A DNA stretch of 64,000 bases from an uncultured Alphaproteobacteria bacterium (GCA_965371625.1 CBDUZE010000002.1:177668-241667); one strand, 5' to 3'. Positions 10,728 through 55,229 are shown, counted from the stretch's first letter. Numbers and translations: made by a program. Notes: a model not told the origin generated them from the sequence alone.

Positions 10728-11735
10728 TCACCCTTCTCGCCGAAACAGGGCGACCAAAAGGATAAGCACGACGGCCAAGCCGAGCACGATCGCCACCGGA
10801 ATTCCAACCGATGCCGTCACCGAGGGCGAGGTCGGGATGTCGGAAACGAAGGCCGGCTCGATGATGCGGCCGGCGTAAGGCAGGGTGCTCTGAAGCATCA
10901 TGGCGGTATGCTCCTCGTTGGTGAGGAGCCCGATGAGGACGTCGCGCGTCTCCAACATCGAGGCGCTTCGCAGCTGTTCCTGAAGATAGGCTCGCCGTTC
11001 CGCAGTGGTCGCGCGATCCTGCTGGCGCAACAGCTCGTCGGCCTCGGCGTACACCGTGGTCAGGAGCTCGTAGGCAAAGTCGGGATCGGTGTGGGCGAAC
11101 GAGATACGCCGGAACGGCTCGAGCTTGAGCGTCTTGATCTCGATCGACGATTTGAGATACCTGGCCAGCGATTCGACCGTGGGCTCCGACCAGGTGCCGA
11201 GATGAAAGAGCCCCCGGAGGCGTTGTTCCCATTCGAATCTCCTGCCCGTGGGCCGGATCCATTTCCCTTCCTCGGGCGCCCACGATGCTTCGTAGACCTT
11301 CTGGAGGTACCCGTACTTCTGCTGCAGCAAACGAGCCAGGGTAAGCGAGGAGATCACCAGCTCCAGACGGTCGAAGGTCGTCGCCTGCTGCCCGCCGAGG
11401 TCGAGTCCGAAGCTCCTCGCCACACCCTTGAGACGGCTCGTCTGGCCGCCGGACTGCCCGATCGCGCCGCCCTGGGAGGGCGCAACGATCATTGCCGCCT
11501 CGAACTGCGGCACGAAATTGCGCATGTCCCTGAGGCCGTAGAGGGCGCCCAGGAAAACCAGCAGAAGGAGCAGCCATTTGCCGCGCCACACCGACCCGAC
11601 GAGAACCCGCAGATCGATGAGCTCCTCGCTCACGGGTCCGGCGACGGCGGTCGGGGCCGGGACGACGCCGGGGCTGGCGACCCGCGGCGAGCCTTGGGCC
11701 TGGTAGTCGGCGGGCTCCGGAACCTGCTCTGCCAT
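10728..11735 (-). CDS. Wzz/chain-length determinant (PCP-1 polysaccharide co-polymerase)
   Basis: ATG 'MAEQVPEPADYQ' at 11735. N-terminal TM 'WLLLLLVFLGALYGL', a long periplasmic coiled region, and C-terminal TM 'GIPVAIVLGLAVVLILLVALF'. 336 aa, so no kinase domain. Confidence 0.7.
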   Translation of the reverse strand: MAEQVPEPADYQAQGSPRVASPGVVPAPTAVAGPVSEELIDLRVLVGSVWRGKWLLLLLVFLGALYGLRDMRNFVPQFEAAMIVAPSQGGAIGQSGGQTSRLKGVARSFGLDLGGQQATTFDRLELVISSLTLARLLQQKYGYLQKVYEASWAPEEGKWIRPTGRRFEWEQRLRGLFHLGTWSEPTVESLARYLKSSIEIKTLKLEPFRRISFAHTDPDFAYELLTTVYAEADELLRQQDRATTAERRAYLQEQLRSASMLETRDVLIGLLTNEEHTAMMLQSTLPYAGRIIEPAFVSDIPTSPSVTASVGIPVAIVLGLAVVLILLVALFRREG

Positions 11736-12091
11736 GCCTGTGATCGAGGTTACCTTGGCGACGACACGTGCACCCCGCGACAGCCACACCCGCTGCCCCC
11801 GCGGCCGGCCGAAGAAACCAGGGCCCTCGTGGGCAATCGCGGGATTGCACAGGATCGTCGCAACTTGCGGGAACATGCCTAGCATACCTGAAGCGGTTAT
11901 TGAACAGTCGTGCATTCGCCGCCCGCCCGCATCGAGCGCGGGAATGGCCGGACGCGGTGCCTGCGGCCGGGGCAGCGGGGCGCTGGCGCGCGAGGCGCTC
12001 GCTCCCGGTTCTCCGGCGGCTTGATCGAGCGGGCCCGGCGCATCCCGGCACCTTGACCAAGCCGAGAAGCGCCAGCACTCTGCCTTCCGCG

Positions 12092-37914: not shown

Positions 37915-39081
37915 GGTGGCGCCCGCTCGAGGTCGCAACCCGCGCCATCTCCCAACTCGCGATCACGGCCTGTTGCACCCATCTCAGGGGCATGCAGGAA
38001 CGGTGCAACTAGGTATCCAAACCCCACCAGACGAACAAATTCGCGGCGCGCCGGAGCCCCCTGATGGGGTGCCGCGCGCTTTTCACAAGCGCCGCCGGCC
38101 AACGCGAGAACGGATTATCGCAACCAATAGTCGGTACACATCAATGACTTCGACAAATCTTGGTCGGGCGAAAACGTGTCGGCGTTGGTGGAAAACCAAG
38201 CTGGGAAAAGCAAGAACTACGGTTGATTAGGCACCCAGAGAGGTATAGTATGCGTTCTTCGATCTAAATGCGGGAAAGTATCTTCTAGGTACTTTATGGT
38301 GATTGCGGCCTCACTCCCATTTTGTACAAATTCGGCTTAAGAATCAACATCTTGCAGCCGTGTTGCGAGCGAGGCAAGGGGATACCTGGAGGCTCAATTG
38401 AGTTAGGTCGCCTATCCAGACCGATTTTGATCGGCACCTTATGGTGAGTCTCTGAGCATAGAAGTCACCGCGGATGCCAGCCTGGTGGCTGTTGTGACCC
38501 AGACGAGACGCTCGGATTGACCGACATGTCCCAATCGATGCTTTTGGGGGTGTGGCACACGAGAGACTGTAGGTATACGAACTGGCGTCCGTTTCGGCAC
38601 TCGGTCATTGGTTCTCTAGCCGGACGCCAGGACATCACTGACCCTGGCCGCTTTTCGCTCCTTCTGGTAACCGCGAGCCGCCCGTCAAACACTGGCGAGG
38701 CATTGCAATCAGGATTGGACCATAGAGGGAAGGTGTGGATCAGAACCCTCCGCGACGCAATCAGGATCGATTGGCATTTGACCGACCTGGTTCCCGGGCT
38801 TTGTTCGATAGCCAGAGACCAAATTGCGCATCGTTTATCACGTCTTGTTTCACGCCTGCTACAGGGTCAACCGCGCGCCCAATTCCCGGACCGCGGCTGT
38901 GGCATCATCATTTCCGGATTACCGGACAGGTCGAGAGGCTTGACGACGCGGCAGAAAATCCCTCCTGGGGCGCGAGCCAATCACTATGGCCATCACTCGC
39001 AGCTTCTTCTCACTTCATAGTGACCACGGTGGAAACAACTGGGTAACGTCGACTTTAGATCGGGAAGCAAAGGAGCACAAG

Positions 39082-39936
39082 ATGTGTACATTTTTGAAAT
39101 TTCTGCTTCTGAGTGTGAGTCTTCTGGTATACGCGGCCTATATCCCCGGGGCGCTCAGTCAAGACCCCAGTTTTGTAATGAAACGTGCGGTAAAGTATTT
39201 CGACGATACCGCCGTGCCGCAAATCATAGGAGGTACGATTGCAGATCCATCGGACTGGCCGGCAACGTTTGTATTTATTAGTCCTCAGGGTGGCGGCTGT
39301 ACGAGCACTGCAATTGGCCCAAAGGTAATCTTGACAGCAGCTCATTGCATTGGCGATAACGCTAAGGGTATTGTGGAACTGAATGGACGCACGGTGGCAG
39401 CTGCATGCTATCATCATCCTGATTACCACAACAACGTGTCGGACACTGATCCGAAATGGTCCGAAAAGGTATCTCCAGACTTTGCACTTTGTATAACTGA
39501 CGACCAGCTTGCAGGGTTAGATTTCGAGAACATCGATAAGGAGGGAACCGAGCTCAAGCTTGGGCAGACTATCCAACTTGTTGGTTTTGGATGCAATGCA
39601 ATCGGCGGAACGGACAACGGGTTTGGCGTTCTATATGAAGGCAATTCCGCCGTCCAGAGCCTGCCCACGCCACCGAGCTACTATACGATAACACTCGGTG
39701 GTGCGGCTGTCTGTTATGGAGATAGTGGCGGTGGAGCGTACGTACTCTTAAATCCACCGGCAAAGGCACGTCGGGTTTTGATGGGTGTGGCCTCTCGCGG
39801 CAACATCTCCACAAGATCCTTGCTCTCGACAACTAGCTTGTCTGGCTTTATTTCTTGGGCTGATTCCTTAGCCGGGCGACACAACACGAAGATATGCGGG
39901 ATAGATACCGGTGTTCCAGGGTGCAGATCGATGTAG
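39082..39936 (+). CDS. Secreted trypsin-like serine protease (S1 family)
   Basis: RBS 'aaggag' then ATG. Signal peptide 'MCTFLKFLLLSVSLLVYAAYIPGALS'. Propeptide then 'IIGG'. Catalytic triad 'LTAAHC', Asp, 'GDSGG'. GC ~48%. Confidence 0.8.
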   Translation: MCTFLKFLLLSVSLLVYAAYIPGALSQDPSFVMKRAVKYFDDTAVPQIIGGTIADPSDWPATFVFISPQGGGCTSTAIGPKVILTAAHCIGDNAKGIVELNGRTVAAACYHHPDYHNNVSDTDPKWSEKVSPDFALCITDDQLAGLDFENIDKEGTELKLGQTIQLVGFGCNAIGGTDNGFGVLYEGNSAVQSLPTPPSYYTITLGGAAVCYGDSGGGAYVLLNPPAKARRVLMGVASRGNISTRSLLSTTSLSGFISWADSLAGRHNTKICGIDTGVPGCRSM

Positions 39937-40010
39937 GACCCGATTTACCTTCACCCTAGAAATCATAAGACCAATTGTGATGTCCCCGGCATAATGAGGA
40001 GTGTATCGGC

Positions 40011-42113
40011 ATGCTGAGATTTGGGAATAGATTGACCATAATAGTAATTACCTTTTGTCTTACAGCGTCCACAAGTTCGCGCGGTGACATGGTTACCTTA
40101 TTCGTTGTTAGCTCCGCGATAACAAAAGACGTCGTCGAATATGTGGCAAGAATCGGCAAGCCCCAACGCATACACGTGAAGAAGGGTCAGAGATTTTCGG
40201 ATATTTTGAGAGCGCGATGCGGTCGCCTCAATAACAACTTCATTAATTTATTGAGAACGTCATCGGCGACAGAATTGGGAAAATTGTTGAATTTGGATTT
40301 TGCGTATGAAAGAGATCAATTTATAGAACTCCCTGCGTGTTTGAGTTTGCCACAATATACGGCCACAGAGAGAATAGTTGAAGAAGATGACAGCCCTTGG
40401 GATTATTTTTCCAATGACTCTGCAGGATTTATGTATTTTGAGACTCCATCGCCAATGGTGAAACGGATTGTGGCTACAGCGGCAGATGCTCCGACCACCT
40501 TTATGGACGCCTTTGGGCACTTGAATCCCGGCTTCACATCCTCGGGTATCATTCACGAAGGAGAAGTGGTTCAAGTACCAAAAACACCGGCTGTTTGGTC
40601 ATCTCTGCAAATTCGGCCCGATATCGCAGCGTTTCTCGAGCCGGTCTCAGATGTCCTTGCTCGGCTCTTGATGGAAGGAGGACAAACCCGAGAAACTGCA
40701 CTTATTGAGAGACCAGAAGAAATCATTCTGTATGCACCTCTAACTAATGCGCAGCTGGTTGAGTTTAAATCTTGTCAGGCATCACAGACCTCAACAAATC
40801 TTGACTATGCCTTTGACCCAATGGAGTTAACGAAAGTTATCACCGTCAACAAAAGGTTCCTCCAAGAAGAGCGGCGGTCGACCCCAGATAGGACGACAAT
40901 AGTGATCCCGGATACTGGTCTCTATACCCATGGGAGGACACCATTTCATAACGGACGCTTGATACTGGTCGATCGGTATAGTCCTAGCGATCCCTACGCG
41001 AGCATTCGTCCTTCATCCAAATACCCGTATCGTCATCACGGCACCTACGTAGCTTCAGTAGCCCTGGGGGGCGCGAGCTTTCTGCAGGCATTCGATGTCA
41101 TGGGAGTGGATATTAAGATTGCGCCTATTAATATAATCGAAGAAAAAGAAAGGATATGCTGGCGTTCAAATGCGGCTGCATACAGTTGCCCTTACCATCG
41201 CGTAAAGACGGAGGCTTTCAACAATGCAATGGCAAGTGCCGAGACTCACAATGCCATTCTCAATCTTAGCGTAGGGCGCCTAACACGATTTATCGGCCTT
41301 GAAAAATATCTGAATAAGGATAGTAGTATATTGTTCGTTGTGGCTGCTGGAAACGCCGGCCAGTCACTTTCGAAAAGAAAGACCTATCCGTCACGGTATG
41401 GCGGGAGCAATAATGATGGGAAGTACAATCTGATATCGGTGGCTGCGCTGGACTTAGACGGCTCGAGAGCTGGTTTTTCAAATTATGGAAGCGAATACGT
41501 TGACATCGCGGCACCAGGTTGTCGTCAGCGCGTGTTTGAATACAATGATGAGTCACGTAGCTTCAGCTTCCAGAGGAAATCGGGCACATCATTTGCAGCG
41601 CCGTTGGTCTCGTTTACTGCAGCATTGATCAAGTCCTTTTGGTTGGGCGCGTCGCCGCGTAAAATCAAACACCGCATTATCACAGCTTCGGATATTTCCG
41701 AAGAACTCTGGGGGAAGGGCGAAGTGGCCGGTGGGCGCATGCTAAATGTTGTGAAAGCGGTTTCTTTGTATCAAGACATAGTAGAAGCTAGAGCTGATGG
41801 AGAATCCAGACTTATTCGGGGTGAGATAGATTCAAATCATCGGATTTTCGAGTTTTGTGATGGGAGACTCACGCTTTACCGAAAGGATAACCCAGGGCGC
41901 CCGCAAATAAAGAAAATTACACCTATTGCAGACCCGACATCTCAGGAGCCGAGAATTCTGGTTTACTGGACCAATGTTGAGGGTGTATTGAGGCCTGAGA
42001 TATGCGCGCAACAAGAAATTACCATAAAGATAACAGAGGATTTTACCGGGCGGGTATACGAGTTACCGACAGATAGTATAATCGACGTTGTTTTTTCGGA
42101 GCGGTTGAACTAG
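40011..42113 (+). CDS. Secreted subtilisin-like serine protease (S8 family) with N- and C-terminal extra domains
   Basis: RBS 'gaggag'. Signal peptide 'MLRFGNRLTIIVITFCLTAS'. Catalytic 'VIPDTGL' (Asp), 'HGTYVASVALGG' (His), 'GTSFAAPLVS' (Ser). GC ~45%. Confidence 0.85.
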   Translation: MLRFGNRLTIIVITFCLTASTSSRGDMVTLFVVSSAITKDVVEYVARIGKPQRIHVKKGQRFSDILRARCGRLNNNFINLLRTSSATELGKLLNLDFAYERDQFIELPACLSLPQYTATERIVEEDDSPWDYFSNDSAGFMYFETPSPMVKRIVATAADAPTTFMDAFGHLNPGFTSSGIIHEGEVVQVPKTPAVWSSLQIRPDIAAFLEPVSDVLARLLMEGGQTRETALIERPEEIILYAPLTNAQLVEFKSCQASQTSTNLDYAFDPMELTKVITVNKRFLQEERRSTPDRTTIVIPDTGLYTHGRTPFHNGRLILVDRYSPSDPYASIRPSSKYPYRHHGTYVASVALGGASFLQAFDVMGVDIKIAPINIIEEKERICWRSNAAAYSCPYHRVKTEAFNNAMASAETHNAILNLSVGRLTRFIGLEKYLNKDSSILFVVAAGNAGQSLSKRKTYPSRYGGSNNDGKYNLISVAALDLDGSRAGFSNYGSEYVDIAAPGCRQRVFEYNDESRSFSFQRKSGTSFAAPLVSFTAALIKSFWLGASPRKIKHRIITASDISEELWGKGEVAGGRMLNVVKAVSLYQDIVEARADGESRLIRGEIDSNHRIFEFCDGRLTLYRKDNPGRPQIKKITPIADPTSQEPRILVYWTNVEGVLRPEICAQQEITIKITEDFTGRVYELPTDSIIDVVFSERLN

Positions 42114-42202
42114 CGACGGCTACCAGAGATTCCTGGCCGGAGCGGTATTTCACTGCGGGGCCAAGTCGTGGAACAATGCTTCATTGGCCCGGCTACCGTG
42201 GC

Positions 42203-44431: not shown

Positions 44432-45553
<1,122 letters not shown>

Positions 45554-46395: not shown

Positions 46396-46477
46396 CGCTT
46401 TCGAAGCTATCGCGCGCGCTACTTCGAGATGGCGCCGTTGTCACGGCCCAAGGCTCTGAGAAAGCACGCCAGCCTAA

Positions 46478-47488
46478 CTACTCGCATTCCCTGATCGACA
46501 ACCCTTCCGGCAGCACCGTATCGCGATCACCGCAGGCTGTGTCGAGCTGATCCTGGACCAACCCCCTTGCCAGCTTGAGGTTGGCGCCGCGCAGGTCGGC
46601 ATTTCCAAGCACCGTAGCGGTGAGAATAGACCTTGCGAGGTTCGCGTCCTTCAAGACAGCGTTCCTCAAGTCGGCTCCTTCAAGGTTTGCTCTCCCCAGA
46701 TTGGACTTCGTCAGATTGGCGTCACGTAACACGGCTTGCTGTAGATTCGCTCGTTCCAGGTTTGCTGATTCCAGATGAGCACCTTGCAGCTGAGCGTTGC
46801 TCAGATCAGCTCTTTTCAGCTTGGCGCGGCGCAAGTCAACGCCGGTCATTATTGCTCCTCGCAGGATCGCCCTTTCCAATTCAGCAAATTCAAGGGTAGC
46901 TTTCGCGAGGTTGGCTTCGCTCAAGTCAGCCTCTTTCAGGTCCGCTCCATTCATTTTGCAGCCCGTGAGTATGGCGCGCACCAGGTTGGCTTTCTGCAGG
47001 TCCACTCGGCTCAAGTTGACTCGCTTGAGATCCGTGCCACTCAAGTCGGCTTTCTCCAGGTCGGCCCCACTCAACTTGGCCCCTCGCATTTTCGCCCCAC
47101 GCATGTTGGCCTTTTCCAATATGGCCCCGCGCAGATCAGCACCCCCGAGCATGGCCCCTGCGAGGTTCGCCTTCGACAGATCCGCCCCGTTCAAGTTCGC
47201 GGAGCTCAGCATGGCGCGACTGAGGTTTGCGCCATGAAGATCGGCCCGTGCCAAGTTGGCCGAATTCAGGATGGCCCGACTCAGATCGGCGCCTTTCAGG
47301 CTGGCGTTCTGGAGATCGGCGCGCGCCAGATCGGCTCCTTTAAGGTCGCAATTCGGGCATTCTCTCGTCGCCCTTAGCACGTCCACGCTCTTCTTATCGA
47401 AGGCGTGGCCATTGACGAACGGTACAAGCACAGTCGCTACGGCGATAGACGCAATCGTCAGCGTCTTCAGTCGTAGTTTTCTGGTCAT
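46478..47488 (-). CDS. Secreted pentapeptide-repeat protein (copy A)
   Basis: ATG 'MTRKLRLKTLTIASIAVATVLVPFVNGHA' signal peptide. Then about 50 A(D/N)LxxA(N/D)L pentapeptide repeats. C-terminal 'CGDRDTVLPEGLSIRECE'. Confidence 0.8.
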   Translation of the reverse strand: MTRKLRLKTLTIASIAVATVLVPFVNGHAFDKKSVDVLRATRECPNCDLKGADLARADLQNASLKGADLSRAILNSANLARADLHGANLSRAMLSSANLNGADLSKANLAGAMLGGADLRGAILEKANMRGAKMRGAKLSGADLEKADLSGTDLKRVNLSRVDLQKANLVRAILTGCKMNGADLKEADLSEANLAKATLEFAELERAILRGAIMTGVDLRRAKLKRADLSNAQLQGAHLESANLERANLQQAVLRDANLTKSNLGRANLEGADLRNAVLKDANLARSILTATVLGNADLRGANLKLARGLVQDQLDTACGDRDTVLPEGLSIRECE

Positions 47489-47697
47489 CACAGGTTCCTT
47501 CTCAAGTTCCAATCTGCTGAAAAGCCCCTCCTTTGTCACTGATTTGGGTGATACGTTTCCTTATCAAACCCTCCATCCGCATCCGACATTTGCGCCAATT
47601 GCCGTGCTCATGCTATCTCCGCTGGGCCAGTGGGCCGCCGAGAGCGAAGAGCATACCGTGGCCGAGTTGCCGCCGCGCGGCATCACTGCTCGGCGCG
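46478..47697. repeat. Segmental duplication copy A (about 1.22 kb, ~93% identical to 49091-50307)
   Basis: Identity starts exactly at the PRP stop codon and extends ~210 bp upstream of the PRP start. Small indels in the 5' flank. Confidence 0.85.
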
Positions 47698-48287
47698 TCC
47701 TTCTCCTCAATTCGCCCATCAATCAATGATAGACATGGCGCCAGAAATGACAATCAGGATGTCCCCTTAATGTTCTACGTGAATCCCCTTAGCCAAGATC
47801 GCCCAGATGGCTTCTCCCGGCTGCCGACGGCGATAGCACAACGGACGTTCGTGCCACAACTCCCACACTAACCAGCACGGTAGGTCACGATCCTCCCTCT
47901 ACCTGGCTGACTGAGTTGGCGATGGGAAACCCCGCCAAACCGTCAACTCAGGCGCCAAGGGCACGCCTCGCCTTGGGGCGGCCTTGTTTCGGTACCGGGA
48001 ACCTTGAGATTGGCGCACCCCGTTCTCGGGACACAATTCATCGGCGCGCCTGAAGGCGTGGAGCGATGCGTCTCCGCCCTCTTGTTGGCTCGTCGAGCCG
48101 GCGCTGAATTTTCGGTTCTTCTCTCTAGAAAAAAGGAGCGACCCGGACGCCGCCCCTTAACTTTGCGCCGTTAAGCTTGCGGTCGGCCGCTGAGCGTTAC
48201 TTCATCTTCGCCGCGCGATTGGCCAATTTAAGAGCCTCTTGAAGCATTTGCTCCGCTCTTTCGGAATTATGGAGACCCATGCTGCGA

Positions 48288-48720
48288 TCAAGCAATACGA
48301 AGTTGATCATCGAGGCTGAAAACCGGTACTTCAACCCACTTCTTTAGGTGCGGCAAGGCCTTATTGCCTTCCTGATGGCACGCCATGCACGCGCTGCGAA
48401 CACCGGCGAATTTTTGCGAGGCCGGTGTCGCGACCATGAAGGTATGGGAGGAGACATCCCTTGGGTGTGGTTTACTGGCGGTCTTGTTTGAGCGATACCC
48501 GATCGTCGCCATATGACAATCGACGCATTTGACGCCAGCCTTCTCCATCGGGCTTCCCGCATACATCTTGGCATTGGGCCGCATGGCATAGCCGTTCTCG
48601 GAATGACAACTTATACACAACTTTTCAGGCTTCATGCGGAGTTAAGCGTTCTCCCATTTGCCGTGGAAGGTGTGACAGGTCACGCAGCTCATACCGGCCG
48701 TATTGAAGTGGGTACTCTTA
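48288..48720 (-). pseudogene. Fragmented multiheme c-type cytochrome (4 CxxCH motifs in two frames)
   Basis: ORF 48288..48635 has 'CISCH', 'CVDCH' and 'CMACH'. It has no signal peptide or TM. Immediately upstream, in another frame, 'PDFTKSTHFNTAGMSCVTCHTFHGKWENA*' carries a fourth CxxCH. This is consistent with a frameshifted and truncated NapC/NrfH-like or larger multiheme gene. GC ~52%. Confidence 0.5.
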
Positions 48721-49090
48721 GTGAAATCCGGCCACTACGAAGTGAGCGTCCTTGAAAGAATCCTGGCCAGATTGAACACGTTGCGCCTCCCGTAGCATCG
48801 TCAGTGTGTCGGTGGGCGAATCTACGCTCCCGGTATCCTAGGCCAACGAAAATCCGCCCAGGAAAACGAGGTATGCACCTGCCAGAAATACCGAACTAGC
48901 CAGTCGAACGAGCCTCTAGAACGGTTCCAGGTCAATTGGAGCCGCTCTCAGGCCGCGCCGGCGCGGACCCTTGGATCCGCTGCCGTGAGCGAAAAGAATC
49001 TGGAGCGATTCCAGGCGACCTGGAATTGCTCTGGAATACTCGGGTCATTTCTTGAATTCTCTGGCCGATGCATGTGGGAAATGCAGCTAT

Positions 49091-50101
49091 CTACTCGCAT
49101 TCCCTGATCGACAACCCCTCCGGCAGCACCGTATCGCGATCACCGCAGGCTGTGTCGAGCTGATCCTGGACCAACCCCCTTGCCAGCTTGAGGTTGGCGC
49201 CGCGCAGGTCGGCATTTCCAAGCACCGTAGCGGTGAGAATAGACCTTGCGAGGTTCGCGTCCTTCAAGACAGCGTTCCTCAAGTCGGCTCCTTCAAGGTT
49301 TGCTCTTCCCAGATTGGACTTCGTCAGATTGGCGTCACGTAACACGGCATGCTGTAGATTCGCTCGTTCCAGGTTTGCTGATTCCAGATTCGACCGGTTC
49401 AAGTGAGCGTTGCTCAGATCAGCTCTTTTCAGCTTGGCGCGGCTCAAGTTAACGTCGGTCATTATTGTTCCTCGCAGGATCGCCCTTTCCAATTCAGCAA
49501 ATTCAAGGATGGCTTTCGCGAGGTTGGCTTCGCTCAAGTCAGCCTCTTTCAGGTCCGCTCCACTCATTTTGCAGCCCGTGAGTATGGCGCCCTTCAGGTT
49601 GGCTTTCTGCAGGTCCACTCGGCTCAAGTTGACTCGCTTGAGGTCCGTGCCACTCAAGTCGGCTTTCTCCAGGTCGGCCCCGCTCAACTTGGCCCCTCGC
49701 ATTTTCGCCCCACGCATGTTGGCCTTTTCCAAAATGGCCCCGCGCAGGTCAGCACCCCCGAGCATGGCCCCTGCGAGGTTCGCCTTCGACAGATCCGCCC
49801 CGTTCAAGTTCGCGGAGCTCAGCATGGCGCGACTGAGGTCCGCTCCATGAAGATCGGCCCACCCCAAGTTGGCCGAATTCAGGATGGCCCGACTCAGATC
49901 GGCACCTTTCAGATTGGCATTCCGGAGATCAGCGCGCGCGAGATCGGCTCCTTTCAGGTCACAACCCGGGCATTCTCTCGACGCCCTTAGCACGTCCATA
50001 CTCTTCTGCTCGAAAGCGTGACCATTGACGAATGGTCCAAGCACAGCCGCTACGGTTATAGACGCAATCGTCAGCGCCTTCAGTCGTAGTTTGCTGGTCA
50101 T
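49091..50101 (-). CDS. Secreted pentapeptide-repeat protein (copy B)
   Basis: 336 aa, a near-identical paralog of 46478..47488 with the same signal peptide and repeat array. Confidence 0.8.
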   Translation of the reverse strand: MTSKLRLKALTIASITVAAVLGPFVNGHAFEQKSMDVLRASRECPGCDLKGADLARADLRNANLKGADLSRAILNSANLGWADLHGADLSRAMLSSANLNGADLSKANLAGAMLGGADLRGAILEKANMRGAKMRGAKLSGADLEKADLSGTDLKRVNLSRVDLQKANLKGAILTGCKMSGADLKEADLSEANLAKAILEFAELERAILRGTIMTDVNLSRAKLKRADLSNAHLNRSNLESANLERANLQHAVLRDANLTKSNLGRANLEGADLRNAVLKDANLARSILTATVLGNADLRGANLKLARGLVQDQLDTACGDRDTVLPEGLSIRECE

Positions 50102-50307
50102 CACAGGCTCCTTCTCAAGTTCTAATCCGCTGAAAAGCCTCTCTTTTGTCACTGATTTGGGTGATACGTTTCCTTATCAAACCCTCCATTCGTATCCGGA
50201 ACTCGTGCCAATTGCTGTGCTCGTGCCATCTCCGCCGGGCGAGTGCACCGCTGAGAGCGGAGAGCATACTGTGGCCGAGTTGCGCCGCGCGGCATCACTG
50301 CTCGGCG
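49091..50307. repeat. Segmental duplication copy B
   Basis: See copy A. Confidence 0.85.
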
Positions 50308-50374
50308 CTTCCCTGTCCGGGCAGCCCCGCGGCCTCGCTTGAGCGGTGCGCGTCCCTCTCGAAAAGGGCTCGCG

Positions 50375-50587
50375 CTAGTCCATCCCGCCGCCGCGGACCC
50401 GCACGCGCCGTCCCGCCAGCTCCGCGATCACGGTGACCACGGCGATGGCCAGAAATATCAGGGCGCCCAGACCCCAGACCCGGATGCTGGGCGGCATGTA
50501 GATCATCGGGATGGTGGCGTAGAGCGTCGCCAGGACGCCCCATACCGCGAAGATGCTGCCGATGAGCAATGCGTCGAAGCTCTTCAT
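50375..50587 (-). CDS. Small 2-TM membrane protein, last gene of the oxidase operon
   Basis: RBS 'aaaggaga' then ATG 'MKSFDALLIGSIFAVWGVLATLYATIPMIYMPPSIRVWGLGALIFLAIAVVTVIAEL'. 23 bp after the subunit I stop. Confidence 0.45.
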   Translation of the reverse strand: MKSFDALLIGSIFAVWGVLATLYATIPMIYMPPSIRVWGLGALIFLAIAVVTVIAELAGRRVRVRGGGMD

Positions 50588-50610
50588 GACCTTTTCTCCT
50601 TTACTGTGGT

Positions 50611-52296
50611 TCAGTGGCCGCCAGCGGCGCTGCCGCCCACGACGATGGGAACGCTTTCCAGAATCTCGAAGCTCACGGCGGTGAAGGCGTACATGGCGCC
50701 GATCAAGACGAACACGCAAAGCGGTCCGACCCAGGCGCCGTGCCGACCGATGGCCGCACCGCCCCAGGAGACGCTCGATAGATCCTCGATGCCTTGGCCC
50801 GCGCGGCCGACCTCTCCGACCAGACTCCGCACGAGGGCGTAGACGTACACCGCCAGCGCGACCGTCATGAACGTGGCGCCGATACCGACGACACCCATCG
50901 CCGTCCCCCAGACGAAGGGAGCATCGCCTTCATAGCTGAGGTCGAAGAGACGCCGCGGGACGCCCTTGTATCCGGCCACGAGACCGGCGCTGCCGAACAG
51001 CAGCAGCCCCAAGGTGGTGACGTAGGGCATCCTGGCGAGAAGCGATGGGCGCCAGATTCGGCCCCCCGCCAGCGCCGGGATCACGTAGATCAGGGCGGCA
51101 ATGAAGGTGAGCGTGACCGTGCCCAACGTCAGGAAGTGGAAGTAGCCCGGTACGAAGAAGGTATCGCTCAACAACAGCGCCAGCTTCTCCTGAATGAGCA
51201 CGAAGGAGAACACGCCGCCCAGGGCGAGATTGATCACCGCCATCCCGATCGCCGCCATCGCCGGATTGCTCCAGGGGAGCATACCCACCCACCCGAACAG
51301 ACCGCGGGCACCTTGGGCCCTGGCGTGCGATTCGAGCGAGGCGACGATGATCAAAAACACCAAAATCGTCGGCACGGCGATGAACAAGGAGAGCAGTGAC
51401 CCGGACATCCGCACGGCGTCGGCCAACCCGGGCTCGAGGAACATGTGGTAGAGCGAGGTGGGCGGCACGAAGATCAGGTACATGGCGAAAACGAATTTCG
51501 AGACGCGCGCTCCGAAAATCGATTTGACCCCGGTGATGACCTCGACCAGCACGTACCAGATCACAACCGTGGCCATGAGCGGCAGGTAGTGCATGTTGTG
51601 GAACAAGACGTGCCAGCTCATGGTGTAGCCGGAGACCTCGGGCCCGAGCCCGAACGCCCACAGCATGGCGGGCAGAAAGGCGTTGACGCCGGCGACGGCA
51701 CTGACCATGAGCAACCCGGCCCAGGCCACGGAGGCGAAGGCAATCGAGGACCAGGTGTCGATCTTGCCCGCGAGCTTGGGGCGCAGCGCCGTCATCAGGC
51801 TCGAGGCGGCGACCACGAAGAGACCGGCACTGAGCAGGATGTAGCCGAGATAGAAGTAGCCCGCCTCGGTCATCTCGAACTCGACCAGCTCCGGATTGCC
51901 GTCGTAGAGCAGGATCGCTCCCAGGTTGGGCGCGATCTCGCTCAACACGAACCCCGCGGTCATCAGGATCAGGCCCAGCCACGCCAGCGGTCGCCAGGCG
52001 ATGCCTTCGCTGCCATCGGTGTAGACGCTGGCCAGGATGAGCACGAAAGCCGCCTGCATGAAGTAGAGCCAGTAAAAGAAAATGGTGGTTCCATGCAGGC
52101 TCAGCATTGTGTACGCCGTCTCCGGCCCGAGCTCGACAAAGCCAGCGCGGTCGAAGGCCGAAAACGCGCCGTAGACGAGTCCCAAAGCCAGGGCGACGAT
52201 GGCCAGGGCGGTGAAACTCAACAGCAGCCTCTTGTCTCCCTGGGGAAGGGCCTTCAGGCCCTCGACCAGTGGATTCTTGATCGCTTTCTCAGTCAT
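50611..52296 (-). CDS. Heme-copper oxidase superfamily subunit I-like protein (divergent)
   Basis: 561 aa, at least 12 TM. His residues are spaced like HCO helices II/VI/VII/X ('LSLHGTT', 'WHVLFHNMHY', 'YHMF', 'YFHF'). Canonical HH and HxH appear as YH and YxH. RBS 'ggagcag'. Confidence 0.7.
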   Translation of the reverse strand: MTEKAIKNPLVEGLKALPQGDKRLLLSFTALAIVALALGLVYGAFSAFDRAGFVELGPETAYTMLSLHGTTIFFYWLYFMQAAFVLILASVYTDGSEGIAWRPLAWLGLILMTAGFVLSEIAPNLGAILLYDGNPELVEFEMTEAGYFYLGYILLSAGLFVVAASSLMTALRPKLAGKIDTWSSIAFASVAWAGLLMVSAVAGVNAFLPAMLWAFGLGPEVSGYTMSWHVLFHNMHYLPLMATVVIWYVLVEVITGVKSIFGARVSKFVFAMYLIFVPPTSLYHMFLEPGLADAVRMSGSLLSLFIAVPTILVFLIIVASLESHARAQGARGLFGWVGMLPWSNPAMAAIGMAVINLALGGVFSFVLIQEKLALLLSDTFFVPGYFHFLTLGTVTLTFIAALIYVIPALAGGRIWRPSLLARMPYVTTLGLLLFGSAGLVAGYKGVPRRLFDLSYEGDAPFVWGTAMGVVGIGATFMTVALAVYVYALVRSLVGEVGRAGQGIEDLSSVSWGGAAIGRHGAWVGPLCVFVLIGAMYAFTAVSFEILESVPIVVGGSAAGGH

Positions 52297-52317
52297 CGTT
52301 CTGCTCCTGCCCTGCCG

Positions 52318-53319
52318 TCACTCGACGATGATCTTGCCCTTCATCATGTCGTGACCGAGGCCGCAGTAGACGGTGCAGTAGACCAGGTACTCGCCGGGCT
52401 CGGTGAAGGTCATGGTCATCTCGGCCATGGTCCGCGCCGGACGACGCATGATGTGCCCGGCAAATCCGACGTTGACGGAGGCGCCGTGGATGGCGTCCAT
52501 CGACATGATGCGGAAGCGGTAGGGAAGGTCCGCCTCGAGCCGAAGCACCTCGGGCTCGTAGGCGTAGCGCATCGCCATCATATAGATGTCGATCGGCCCG
52601 GTGTCGTCTTGGCCCGGTGAGGTGCTGCCGTGCTCCGCTTCGGCTTCGTCGTGCCCCGCTTCGGCCGCGCCATGCTCCGCTTCGGCTTCGTCATGAGCCG
52701 GTGGGACTACGACGGGCTCCGACTCGGCCGCCTGGTGGCGGTCGCCCGTGGTCCCCATCGAGAGCTCCGCGACCCCCGCGATCGCCTGTTGCTGAACCTC
52801 GGTGAACGCCTGGGCCGAGATCTCGCCCACCGTGTAAGCACGGTAGGCCGCGGTCAGCTCCAATAGCCCGATCGGCGTGTGGACACGGCCCATTTGGTGC
52901 TCGTCGGCCATTGCCTCGTCACCGTGACGGGCAGGGGCAAGCGCCGTTTGGTCGTCGTCGCCATGACCGACGTCACCGGGCATGGCGTTTCGCCCGGACT
53001 CGGACTCCATATGACGCCTGGGTTTGACGCTGCCGTCAGGCAGACTGAACTTTTCGACGAACGCTTCGGTGCGGAGGCGGAAATCGGCCGGCGTCATTCC
53101 GCCGGCAGCGCCGCCGTGACCGCCGTGAACCGCTTTGCTTGCGCCGACCGCCTGTGCTTCGGACAGGAATCTGAAGCTGGTCGGCGCGGCATCATAGGCC
53201 GCCCATACGAAGTAGAGGCTGATGACGGCGAACCCGACCGTGGCAACGAAACCCCACCTCGTGGTGAAATGCCTTCTCGGGCTCTCGCCCGCGAGGCCTT
53301 CGTTCTCTTGCTCTGACAT
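52318..53319 (-). CDS. Heme-copper oxidase subunit II-like protein with CuA cupredoxin domain
   Basis: ATG 'MSEQENEGLAG' after RBS 'ggaggg'. One N-terminal TM. His/Glu-rich duplicated linker 'GHDEAEAEHGAAEAGHDEAEAEHG'. The C-terminal 'AGH...YCTVYCGLGHDMM' gives H..CxxxCxxxHxxM, a complete CuA ligand set. Confidence 0.7.
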   Translation of the reverse strand: MSEQENEGLAGESPRRHFTTRWGFVATVGFAVISLYFVWAAYDAAPTSFRFLSEAQAVGASKAVHGGHGGAAGGMTPADFRLRTEAFVEKFSLPDGSVKPRRHMESESGRNAMPGDVGHGDDDQTALAPARHGDEAMADEHQMGRVHTPIGLLELTAAYRAYTVGEISAQAFTEVQQQAIAGVAELSMGTTGDRHQAAESEPVVVPPAHDEAEAEHGAAEAGHDEAEAEHGSTSPGQDDTGPIDIYMMAMRYAYEPEVLRLEADLPYRFRIMSMDAIHGASVNVGFAGHIMRRPARTMAEMTMTFTEPGEYLVYCTVYCGLGHDMMKGKIIVE

Positions 53320-53486
53320 GACCCAGTCCCTCCGTGAAAGACATTGCTGCCACGCTAGCCCTGGCACCGCGACGGACCCCGCTCGCGGGGAGTGGGTGCC
53401 GCCCTGAACCGTGCTGGAGGCTGGGATCGCTTAGCTGCGGTGGCGCGACAAAACGCGGCGCCACGCGTCAACGACGACAGCCGGGG

Positions 53487-53834
53487 CTAGCACTGAGAGG
53501 GATGGTGGGGAGGGCCGCGGGCCCATCGAACGATCTGGGGCCTTGCGACCAAGACGCCGTCGCTGTCGGGCTCGCCGAGCGCCGGGACGACGCCGTCATG
53601 GGCCGTGGCGGTAGCGAGGGTCGCCAGGGCCAGCCCGCACGGCATAACGCAGGGACAGATCTGCGGGCAGTTAGTGCAAAATGCCTCTTGCGAACCGTGG
53701 TGCGAGGTTTCCCGAGCTGCGGCCGCCGCGCCCTCGTGGGGCGCGGACGGCATCGCGGCATGCACGAGTGGACCGCTGGCGACAGTAATCACCAGCAGGA
53801 TCAGCAATAGGCGCTTGAGAAGCGGCGATATCAT
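53487..53834 (-). CDS. Secreted Cys/His-rich small protein
   Basis: ATG 'MISPLLKRLLLILLVITVASGPLVHA'. 'SHHGSQEAFCTNCPQICPCVMPC' metal-binding-like cluster. Sits between the FNR box and the oxidase genes. Confidence 0.35.
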   Translation of the reverse strand: MISPLLKRLLLILLVITVASGPLVHAAMPSAPHEGAAAAARETSHHGSQEAFCTNCPQICPCVMPCGLALATLATATAHDGVVPALGEPDSDGVLVARPQIVRWARGPPHHPSQC

Positions 53835-53964
53835 CTGCAACGTGCCGGGGTCGCCGCCCGGTTCTTGCGTCAGCCGTGGGTACCGGACGGCTCGACCAGC
53901 GCAACAATAGAACCATGATCAAGACCCGAGAATGTGACACGGTGTCCTGCGACAATTTGTCTCA

Positions 53965-53978
53965 ATGATCTCGATCAA
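53965..53978. promoter_or_regulatory. FixK/FNR-type box (aTGAT-ctcg-ATCAA) upstream of the oxidase operon
   Basis: 9/10 match to TTGAT-N4-ATCAA. Located in a locally AT-rich segment ~130 bp upstream of the Cys-rich gene start. Confidence 0.45.
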
Positions 53979-54110
53979 TGGTTGCGGGAAACGCGCGACG
54001 CGCTGCGCTCCCGCCGCAGGTGATTTGGACGTCAGACGACCGCGCGAACGGCTATCGCCGCCGATCCGCCCGCGGTGCCGGGCCGAGGTTCGCGCCGGTC
54101 TTGGGCGGGC

Positions 54111-55229
54111 TCACCCGGCGGCGGCCCGCTTCTGCCGCGCGGCGGCGCGTTCGCTGGCGAGCAATGCCTCCTTGCGCTCGAGGCCCCAGCGATAACCGCC
54201 GAGACCGCCGTCCTCGCGCAGCGCGCGGTGGCAGGGCACGATGAGCGAGACCGGGTTGGTGGCGCAGGCCCGGCCCACGGCGCGCTGGGCCTTGGGTTTG
54301 CCGAGGCGGGCGGCGATCTCGCCGTAGCTCCGGGTCTCGCCCAGGGGGATGCGCTTGAGCTCCTCCCAGACCCGCCACTGGAAGGCGGTGGCGCGCACGT
54401 CGAGCGGGAGGTCGAGGCGCGGCTCGGCGCCCGCCAGGTAGCCGACCAGCGCCGCGCTCCAGCGCCCCAGGCCACGGTCGTCGCGGCGGATCTCGGCGGC
54501 CGGGTATTCCTGGGCGAGCTCGCCCTCGAGCTCGGCATCGTCGTCGCCGAGATAGACCGCGCAGACGCCGCGCTCGGTGGCGCCGACCAAGAGCCGGCCG
54601 AGCGAGGAGGCGACGACGCTGTAGCGGATGCGGGCGCCGCGTCCGCCCTTGGCGTAGGTCGCCGGGGTCATGCCGAGCTGCGTCGGCGCGCGCTCGTAAA
54701 GCCGGCTCGAGGAGCCGTAGCCGGCCTCGTAGAGCGCCCCCGTCACCGGCTCGCCGCGGCGCAGACCGGCCTTGAGCCGGCCCAAACGGCGGGCGTCGGC
54801 GTACTGGCGCGGGGTGATGCCCATGACGCGCTTGAAGGTGCGCTGCAGATGGTAGGGGCTGAGGCCGGCGTGGCTCGAGAGCTCGGCCAGCGTCGGCGGC
54901 CCGCCGTCGCCATTGCCGGCACCCTGGCCAGCGCCCTGGCCATCGATGTACCGGCACACCCGGCGCACCATGTCGAGGTGGGGATCGCCGGCCTCGGCGT
55001 CGCCGGGGCGGCAGCGGCGGCAGGCGCGGTAGCCGGCCTGCTCGGCGGCCTCGGGCACGGCGAAGAAGTGGACGTTCTCGCGCCGCGGCCGGCGGCTCGG
55101 GCACGACGGCCGGCAGTAGATGCCGGTCGAGCTTACGGCGTAAACGAAGCTGCCGTCGAAACCGGCATCGCGGCTCTCGACGGCGTGCCAGTGCTCATTC
55201 ACGGTCATGGTCGTTGTCTCCGGTGGCAT
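54111..55229 (-). CDS. ada: Bifunctional Ada: N-terminal Zn methylphosphotriester domain/AraC-type HTH plus O6-methylguanine-DNA methyltransferase
   Basis: 'YCRPSCPSRRPRR...CRRCRP' Ada N-terminal Cys4 domain. HTH 'LAELSSHAGLSPYHLQRTFK'. C-terminal 'LIVPCHRAL' Ogt active site. The start is possibly at 55208 ('MTVNEHWH'). Confidence 0.85.
   Translation of the reverse strand: MPPETTTMTVNEHWHAVESRDAGFDGSFVYAVSSTGIYCRPSCPSRRPRRENVHFFAVPEAAEQAGYRACRRCRPGDAEAGDPHLDMVRRVCRYIDGQGAGQGAGNGDGGPPTLAELSSHAGLSPYHLQRTFKRVMGITPRQYADARRLGRLKAGLRRGEPVTGALYEAGYGSSSRLYERAPTQLGMTPATYAKGGRGARIRYSVVASSLGRLLVGATERGVCAVYLGDDDAELEGELAQEYPAAEIRRDDRGLGRWSAALVGYLAGAEPRLDLPLDVRATAFQWRVWEELKRIPLGETRSYGEIAARLGKPKAQRAVGRACATNPVSLIVPCHRALREDGGLGGYRWGLERKEALLASERAAARQKRAAAG

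Follow-up and report, generated by a model that had tools for sequence, protein, structure and literature searches.

A conserved operon from an uncultured alphaproteobacterium predicted to encode a heme-copper oxidoreductase with tyrosines at two histidine-ligand positions

We analysed a stretch of 64,000 nucleotides from an uncultured Alphaproteobacteria bacterium (GCA_965371625.1, CBDUZE010000002.1:177668-241667; hereafter the window, in whose numbering all positions are given), which carries on its minus strand, from 53978 down to 50375, an operon for an unusual member within the superfamily of heme-copper oxidoreductases (HCOs). The operon very probably encodes a functional member of a Tyr/Tyr family, in which tyrosines stand in for two of the six canonical metal-ligating histidines of subunit I, one of them the histidine proximal to the catalytic heme. 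The best overall explanation of the sequence evidence, to which we give an even chance, is a terminal reductase produced under low oxygen or copper stress, with a tyrosinate-ligated heme and an oxidant such as peroxide as its acceptor.

Read on the minus strand, the operon comprises an FNR-type box, an open reading frame (ORF) for a Cys-rich protein with a weak likeness to DUF2946, the genes for subunits II and I, and a gene for a small protein with two transmembrane (TM) segments. The elements claimed in an initial annotation of this DNA (the CuA subunit II, the linker duplication, the 561-aa subunit I, the 2-TM and Cys-rich ORFs and the box) were all recovered in place, as follows.

53965-53978, strand not set: putative FNR/FixK-type box ATGATCTCGATCAA, read on the minus strand as TTGATcgagATCAT, with one mismatch, 138 nt before the first ORF
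53487-53840, minus strand: Cys-rich small protein of 117 aa, predicted to be secreted or membrane-anchored, with a hydrophobic N-terminal segment CTNCPQICPCVMPC and a C-terminal RGPP
52318-53367, minus strand: subunit II, with a probable start at ATG 53319 (333 aa), a match to ba3 subunit II (E-value 1e-11), a CoxB match and the CuA motif
52599-52724, minus strand: four copies of a tandem 42-nt repeat unit inside the subunit II gene, encoding the duplicated HDEAEAEHG
50611-52296, minus strand: subunit I of 561 aa, a predicted B-type-derived HCO, by Pfam COX1, ba3 match and structure model
51589-51591, minus strand: codon of H236, the new histidine
51448-51450, minus strand: codon of Y283, at the position of a CuB histidine
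51142-51144, minus strand: codon of Y385, at the position of the proximal histidine
50375-50587, minus strand: small 2-TM subunit of 70 aa with the motif Y-x-T-I-P-M-I-Y-M-P, directly downstream of subunit I

The Cys-rich ORF is probably the first gene of the operon. The reading frames of the window, which belongs to a contig of 280 kb, are intact, and an identical subunit I protein, flanked by the same genes, occurs in a metagenome contig of ENA.

Subunit I matches the Pfam COX1 profile (PF00115) with 130.8 bits (cutoff 34.8, E-value 8e-38) over profile positions 2-429 of 436, and the T. thermophilus ba3 subunit I entries (E-value ~1e-28) are its best matches among solved structures. The AlphaFold2 model has a predicted template modelling score (pTM) of 0.84, and the best structural match found for it by Foldseek is again ba3, with a TM-score of ~0.71. 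Judged by profile, relatives and predicted fold, the protein is a genuine HCO of B-type descent. The HMMER alignment, in which posterior support is high at the ligand motifs, maps the ba3 residues H72, H233, Y237, H282, H283, H384 and H386 to H68, H233, Y237, Y283, H284, Y385 and H387, and R449/R450 to R448/R449. Identical ligand columns were obtained when the protein was aligned separately, by MAFFT, with canonical B-type sequences. Four of the six canonical histidines are present (H68, H387, H233 and H284), while the site of the CuB ligand His282 is occupied by Tyr283 and that of the proximal ligand His384 by Tyr385. The low-spin heme ligands H68/H387 are retained together with the Arg448/Arg449 propionate pair. 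His233 and His284 likewise remain as CuB ligands, and with them the His233-x3-Tyr237 motif (H233-N-M-H-Y237).

The initial annotation had read 'YHMF' and 'YFHF' by eye and concluded that tyrosine had taken the place of one CuB histidine and of the histidine proximal to the high-spin heme. This reading is upheld by HMMER, MAFFT, the conservation of the family and the structure model; of the two checks named beforehand, an alignment with all six histidine ligands intact and a failure to match any HCO profile, neither turned out so. The same annotation overlooked a third change at the active site, from Val236 of ba3 to His236, which may give the CuB site a third histidine again. In the upstream cluster 'WHVLFHNMHY', which it considered atypical, H233, H236 and Y237 are invariant in the family, and H229 is not.

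Conservation of these positions was examined at two depths. A protein search covering 5.8 billion proteins returned hundreds of relatives, the best 120 of which were aligned with the query (56-93% identity), and Y283, Y385, H236, H233, Y237 and H284 are invariant in all 121 aligned sequences. Because Y283, Y385 and H236 are invariant throughout this set, the substitutions are, on the alignment evidence, a trait of the family and not the product of chance or sequencing error. In a profile search covering a library of 1.84 billion cluster representatives, the combination H236/Y283/Y385 was found in every full-length, undisrupted representative scoring at least 188 bits, the few exceptions above this score being fragments or sequences with a local disruption (P0132 and P0144, for example). 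The next-best sequences, at 187 bits and below, have the canonical V or Q at position 236 with HH and HFH, or an eNOR-like QQ; the nearest non-family sequences of the library carry B-type signatures, with eNOR-like sequences among the nearest matches. No intermediates with one or two of the three changes were found in this search. In a neighbour-joining tree the Tyr/Tyr sequences form a single clade that adjoins Q-Y and Q-Q (eNOR-like) groups.

When the family is compared with its nearest canonical relatives, the family-specific positions are concentrated at the active site and the O2-channel end (in ba3 numbering G232 to F, V236 to H, W239 to P, V279 to T, H282 to Y, H298 to G and H384 to Y). 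The ba3 residues 232 and 236 sit at the oxygen-channel end beside CuB and are altered in deposited G232V and V236 mutant structures.

This pattern of conservation bears on whether the protein is an enzyme at all. A non-catalytic relic, that is, an HCO-derived scaffold or pseudo-enzyme without a binuclear centre, would be in keeping with the loss of two of the six canonical ligands, and other HCO-like sequences with most ligands lost do exist (library representatives P0186 and P0207). However, the replacement residues, the remaining ligands, the Arg pair and the CuA site are all invariant across 46-93% identity, a three-gene cassette is conserved in about 80 species, and the frames in the window are undamaged. 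The non-catalytic derivative that the initial annotation had allowed for is very improbable, because every electron-transfer ligand is invariant. As for P0186 and P0207 themselves (459-523 aa), they may represent further degenerate or repurposed HCO lineages; in P0186 the helix VI positions read N/E-Y, the HH position reads V-R and helix X reads H-Q-H.

The initial annotation attributed to subunit II a complete CuA site, and this was confirmed both by the ligands (H294, C331-x3-C335-x3-H339-x2-M342) and by the match to the ba3 CuA domain; the CuA motif occurs in all 80 subunit II orthologues, drawn from 79 loci of GTDB species representatives plus further fetched loci. The protein is organised as a Tat-like (twin-arginine translocation) N-terminal motif, one TM anchor, a 193-aa linker rich in His, Glu and Gly, and a C-terminal CuA cupredoxin domain. 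The duplication previously reported in this linker is real both in the peptide, where HDEAEAEHG recurs at residues 225 and 239, and in the DNA, as the 42-nt repeats. Orthologous linkers are 60-193 aa long, the one in the window being the longest, and are rich in His, Met, Glu and Gly, with length and composition poorly conserved. A twin-arginine-like motif, H-[FL]-T-T-R-R-G-F-[IV], precedes the TM anchor in at least 44 of the loci L001-L079, which suggests Tat-dependent insertion of subunit II; the RR pair is lost in the window protein (53271-53291, TTRWGF) and in several marine relatives (TLRPGF).

The small 2-TM gene, noted earlier simply as co-oriented, proved to be a conserved third gene of the cassette: it lies directly 3' of subunit I in at least 60 loci and is called as a gene of 59-70 aa in public assemblies. 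In the gammaproteobacterial subclade L013-L015 the small subunit is 126-128 aa long and consists of two copies fused in tandem (e.g. L014:3086-3472), and a gene for a TlpA-like thioredoxin is found ~1.3-1.4 kb upstream of subunit II. The Cys-rich protein of the window has no match in Pfam; relatives of the same layout, with a hydrophobic N-terminus, C-x2-C and a C-terminal RGPP, stand upstream of subunit II in L009, L071, L005 and L055, and their likeness to DUF2946 is below the cutoff (E-values of 0.007 in L055 and 0.12 in L071).

Combining these observations, the path of electron entry from CuA to the low-spin heme (His68/His387) is intact in its ligands, with Arg448/Arg449 retained. By alignment, three strictly coupled changes (His384 to Tyr385, His282 to Tyr283 and Val236 to His236), accompanied by Gly232 to Phe, have reshaped the catalytic site. 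In the proposed chemistry Tyr385 would ligate the catalytic heme as a tyrosinate, as in catalase. The Fe(III)/Fe(II) potentials of tyrosinate-ligated hemes, such as that of catalase, are very low. Ferric and ferryl iron would be favoured in such a site, and the O2-binding ferrous state disfavoured. The ligands of the non-heme metal would be His233 and His284, joined by the new His236, by Tyr283 or by both; that His236 may reach the metal is suggested by its position on the helix and by the location of ba3 residue 236 at both the active site and the channel. Phe232 and His236 would fill the hydrophobic O2 channel at its end. Of the K-channel residues of ba3 (Y237, S261, Y244, Y248, S309, T312 and T315), only Y237, Y248 and S309 (as Thr) remain, with V, I, V and F in place of T312, T315, Y244 and S261. 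Because most of this set is gone, protons would probably not be taken from the cytoplasm by the ba3 route.

Production of the enzyme would follow low oxygen in the lineage of the window, where an FNR box is present, and copper stress in other lineages. Cytochrome c could serve as its electron donor, as could Cu(I) that the His/Met-rich linker has captured, and its acceptor would be an oxidant that reacts with ferric heme, with peroxide as the best candidate, rather than the substrate of a classical O2 or NO reductase. We tentatively favour a substrate at the level of peroxide over O2 or nitric oxide (NO), while regarding this choice as some way short of probable. More speculative still is the wider proposal of a chemistry new to the superfamily, namely the reduction of peroxide or another ferric-heme oxidant with electrons from cytochrome c or periplasmic Cu(I), on a CuA-fed scaffold that would pair a catalase-like tyrosinate heme with a copper ligated by His and Tyr.

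The main competing view is that the enzyme is a true O2 reductase, a specialised low-oxygen B-type cytochrome c oxidase in which the tyrosines tune the potentials and O2 is still reduced to water. The B-type ancestry, the intact CuA site and the FNR boxes, which suit a low-oxygen oxidase, all fit this view, as does the invariant His233-x3-Tyr237 cross-link motif, a signature of O2 reductases in the work of Murali et al., who count a family with two tyrosines, J, among '11 O2-reductase families' (10.1101/592808; see also PMC11214002). On the other hand, the proximal histidine of the O2-binding heme is a tyrosine in all members, and a tyrosinate strongly disfavours ferrous heme (see also 10.1101/592808); the O2-channel-end residues G232 and V236 of ba3 are Phe and His; and most K-channel residues are lost. 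Taken together, the filled channel, the loss of the K pathway and the tyrosinate ligand argue against a classical proton-pumping O2 reductase, and we consider this alternative rather unlikely.

The order subunit II-subunit I-small protein is conserved in the 79 loci from GTDB species representatives. The hosts are nearly all uncultured, with the addition of Azospirillum brasilense; the megaplasmids of this species and of Azospirillum sp. TSH58 carry the cassette at 53-54% identity, and it also occurs in one genome labelled Rhodobacter capsulatus SP18. The A. brasilense copy is located at 461682-463325 of NZ_CP059450.1, flanked by the genes for subunit II and the small protein. It was further seen in bins labelled Thermoplasmata or Thermoplasmatota archaeon (L048, L057 and L059, with 46-51% identity to the query by tblastn), which reflects either inter-domain transfer or binning error. 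When ORFs of the Azospirillum plasmids were called by the GC content of third codon positions (GC3) and annotated with Pfam, the cassette was found to adjoin resistance-nodulation-division (RND) efflux genes, ICMT, DUF2933 and an LTXXQ protein. Among the 65 loci with at least 6 kb of flanking sequence, 21 have the cassette within a copper-homeostasis island, with genes for copper-type P-ATPases (E1-E2 ATPase; with YHS and HMBD in L077), multicopper oxidase, CusF, DUF411 and DUF2933, as well as ICMT-like and SHOCT proteins, cupredoxin and outer-membrane efflux proteins. In many beta- and gammaproteobacterial loci these genes are contiguous and co-oriented with the cassette.

Such a context raises the possibility of a direct role in copper homeostasis, in which the complex acts as a membrane-bound cuprous oxidase: linker-bound Cu(I) would reduce CuA and the electrons would pass to the heme site, comparable to the multicopper oxidases CueO and PcoA. 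This idea concerns the electron donor and is compatible with the tyrosinate-heme reductase that we prefer. The contiguous, co-oriented multicopper oxidase, CusF, DUF411, Cu-type P-ATPase (YHS/HMBD), DUF2933 and ICMT genes speak for it, together with the RND efflux genes of Azospirillum, the His- and/or Met-rich linkers of most orthologues and the weak DUF2946 likeness of the upstream gene. Its reach is limited by the fact that the association is confined to about a third of the loci counted and is absent from the window and its closest relatives; moreover, the length and composition of the linker are poorly conserved, and the gene for a c-type cytochrome directly after the cassette in L071 suggests an ordinary donor. 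As an explanation of the enzyme, a cuprous oxidase appears unlikely.

The FNR-like box reported upstream of the operon is present, with one mismatch to the consensus TTGAT-N4-ATCAA, and is backed by perfect boxes at the equivalent place in related loci. These stand at -146 (L071) and -98 (L005) before the orthologous Cys-rich ORF; in L007, L012 and L020 they precede subunit II by 50-70 nt, and in L078 the box is at the called start of subunit II. Perfect boxes number 19 in the 1.07 Mb of all loci, and six of them in ~75 kb of operon-upstream sequence correspond, by our own estimate, to about a five-fold excess. A gene for a Crp/FNR-type regulator lies 3 kb from the cassette of L002. In the window, a scan allowing at most one mismatch gave two boxes against 0.39 expected per window; the second, TTGATCTCGATCGA at 11134-11147, has one mismatch and is located within or near an ORF with a Wzz domain (10728-11915, minus strand). 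When 50100-54200 was scanned for promoter and terminator consensus sequences, nothing exceeded the level expected from shuffled sequence, and no -10 element or transcription start was identified in that region. Bacterial periplasmic cytochrome c peroxidases are typically FNR-regulated, and the TTGAT-N4-ATCAA box is also common to the NO-responsive regulators Dnr and NnrR. Low-oxygen (or Dnr/NnrR-type) control of the operon through this putative box is likely.

The second of these regulatory options leads to another candidate function, that of an NO or other N-oxide reductase, as one more B-derived NO reductase (NOR) family beside eNOR, sNOR, bNOR, nNOR and gNOR. B-derived families with CuA exist, gNOR demonstrates that a CuB histidine is replaceable (PMC11214002), and the Tyr/Tyr clade adjoins the eNOR-like 'QQ' sequences in the tree. 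The described NOR families, however, lack the active-site tyrosine and have the proximal histidine (PMC11214002), which is the opposite of the situation here; the NOR analogy drawn in the initial annotation is therefore weak. In addition, no nir, nor or nos genes were found among the conserved neighbours of 84 loci or in the window. The retained His-Tyr motif and this missing context argue against a NOR, an assignment that we regard as very unlikely.

Several points weigh against the tyrosinate-ligated, peroxide-type reductase that we put forward. The assignment of Tyr385 as a tyrosinate ligand derives from its position only, and no catalase-like helper residues, whether a proximal Arg or a distal His/Asn geometry, could be confirmed in the Tyr/Tyr family. 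The AlphaFold model is without cofactors, and its local confidence (predicted local distance difference test, pLDDT) is lowest, at 41-64, for residues 280-300 and 370-383, beside the changed ligands. The His-x3-Tyr motif that Murali et al. take as the O2-reductase hallmark is kept, and J is listed by them with the O2-reducing families. Finally, the two contextual signals do not overlap, copper islands being seen in the beta/gamma and Azospirillum clades only and FNR boxes in the clade of the window only; no copper, peroxide or N-oxide genes are found near the operon in the window. With respect to distal residues, Asn234 was considered and is not claimed as a catalase-like one, being Val, Ile or Met in divergent subclades.

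The closest relatives of the window operon (62-71% identity, from marine alpha- and gammaproteobacterial bins) have no copper genes, and a search for conserved neighbours within this clade found none, the contexts being unrelated. The pentapeptide-repeat genes and the multiheme cytochrome fragment downstream of the operon were rejected as operon members; they are without counterpart in the 79 related loci and have lower GC3. They belong to a region (46474-50152) with a GC content of 57-61% and GC3 of 0.62-0.67, below its neighbours, in which two near-identical 353-aa pentapeptide-repeat genes (46478-47539 and 49091-50152, minus strand) form part of a direct duplication spaced 2613 bp (300-nt seed 99% identical) that flanks the 115-aa multiheme cytochrome c fragment (48288-48635). 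Elsewhere in the window, a low-GC island at 38000-42200 (47-53% versus ~68% elsewhere) probably represents horizontally acquired DNA; it holds a 700-aa ORF of the subtilase family (Peptidase_S8, 40011-42113), and a gene for a DNA methylase (N6_N4_Mtase and RAMA) lies near it at 44465-45553.

The six histidines of subunit I have been treated as a defining constant of the heme-copper superfamily. A widespread and strongly conserved family in which two of them have been exchanged, one being the histidine proximal to the catalytic heme, and which yet keeps the tyrosine cofactor and the CuA entry may be an unrecognised terminal reductase. A tyrosinate-ligated catalytic heme should not support normal ferrous-oxy chemistry, so that the family tests which parts of the scaffold are needed for each reaction. 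If the reading with peroxide or another ferric-heme oxidant is correct, it would tie respiration to defence against copper and oxidative stress under low oxygen. The coupled His236, the FNR boxes in one clade, the copper islands in another and a cultured host, Azospirillum brasilense, turn what was a one-line curiosity into a testable system. There is also a practical side for annotation. Public entries for members of the family (P0010, P0011, P0046, P0052, P0060 and P0066) are labelled as 'cbb3-type' or 'ba3-type' cytochrome c oxidase subunit I; such labels imply ordinary O2 reduction, and the genes would be miscounted as markers of aerobic respiration in metagenomic surveys.

Among known systems, the ba3 oxidase of T. 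thermophilus (PDB 1EHK and related entries) is the best match of both subunits by sequence and structure. It shares with the Tyr/Tyr family the fold of 12-13 TM segments, the CuA subunit II, the low-spin ligands, His233/His283 of CuB, the His-x3-Tyr motif and the Arg449/Arg450 pair. In contrast, its His282, His384, Val236, Gly232 and Trp239 correspond to Tyr, Tyr, His, Phe and Pro in the family, and its K-channel residues T312, T315, Y244 and S261 have been lost there. The accessory parts differ as well: subunit II of the Tyr/Tyr family has the Tat-like motif and the long His/Met/Glu-rich linker, and a downstream 2-TM protein takes the place of the one-helix subunit IIa of ba3. Catalase-type hemes resemble the predicted site in having a tyrosine at the proximal heme position, an analogy of mechanism only; the fold is unrelated.

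The 2024 PNAS survey of HCO diversity (PMC11214002) describes eNOR, sNOR, gNOR, nNOR, bNOR, NOD and an N2O-reductase-like family, all without the active-site tyrosine, and calls gNOR the first family to replace an active-site histidine. Like the Tyr/Tyr family, gNOR is a B-related HCO with one CuB histidine replaced, but it has Asp, not Tyr, at a CuB position, keeps the proximal histidine and lacks both the active-site tyrosine and the CuA ligands, whereas Tyr237 and the full CuA site are retained here. The families eNOR, sNOR, bNOR and nNOR likewise descend from the B type; their subunit II homologues are of the CuA type and their active sites have been remodelled. They differ in the absence of the cross-link tyrosine and in the retention of all histidine ligands, including the proximal one (PMC11214002). 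By its ligand set, the Tyr/Tyr family fits none of the families in that survey.

The closest description is that of the J family, introduced together with families I and K by Murali, Hemp, Orphan and Bisk (2019 bioRxiv, 10.1101/592808), a preprint that shares authors with the 2024 survey. J is a monophyletic clade of subunit I sequences beside the K family, which clusters with eNOR, and a single sentence states that it 'has two tyrosines replacing histidines', expected to lower the heme potential; a literature search for a characterised Tyr/Tyr enzyme found this sentence only. The two tyrosines at histidine-ligand positions match Y283 and Y385, and the neighbourhood of J is similar to that of the Tyr/Tyr clade, beside the eNOR-like QQ sequences, in our tree. 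Assigned by trait and not by phylogeny, the operon is most probably a member of this family. The system is thus not strictly 'undescribed', as the initial annotation had suggested it might be: the Tyr/Tyr trait has already been noticed, and the family is uncharacterised. Unlike the present analysis, the preprint makes no mention of His236, the operon, the small subunit, the FNR boxes or the copper islands. What the present work adds to the J family is the coupled change of Val236 to His, the loss of most K-channel residues, the FNR boxes in the clade of the window and the copper-resistance islands in 21 of the 65 loci.

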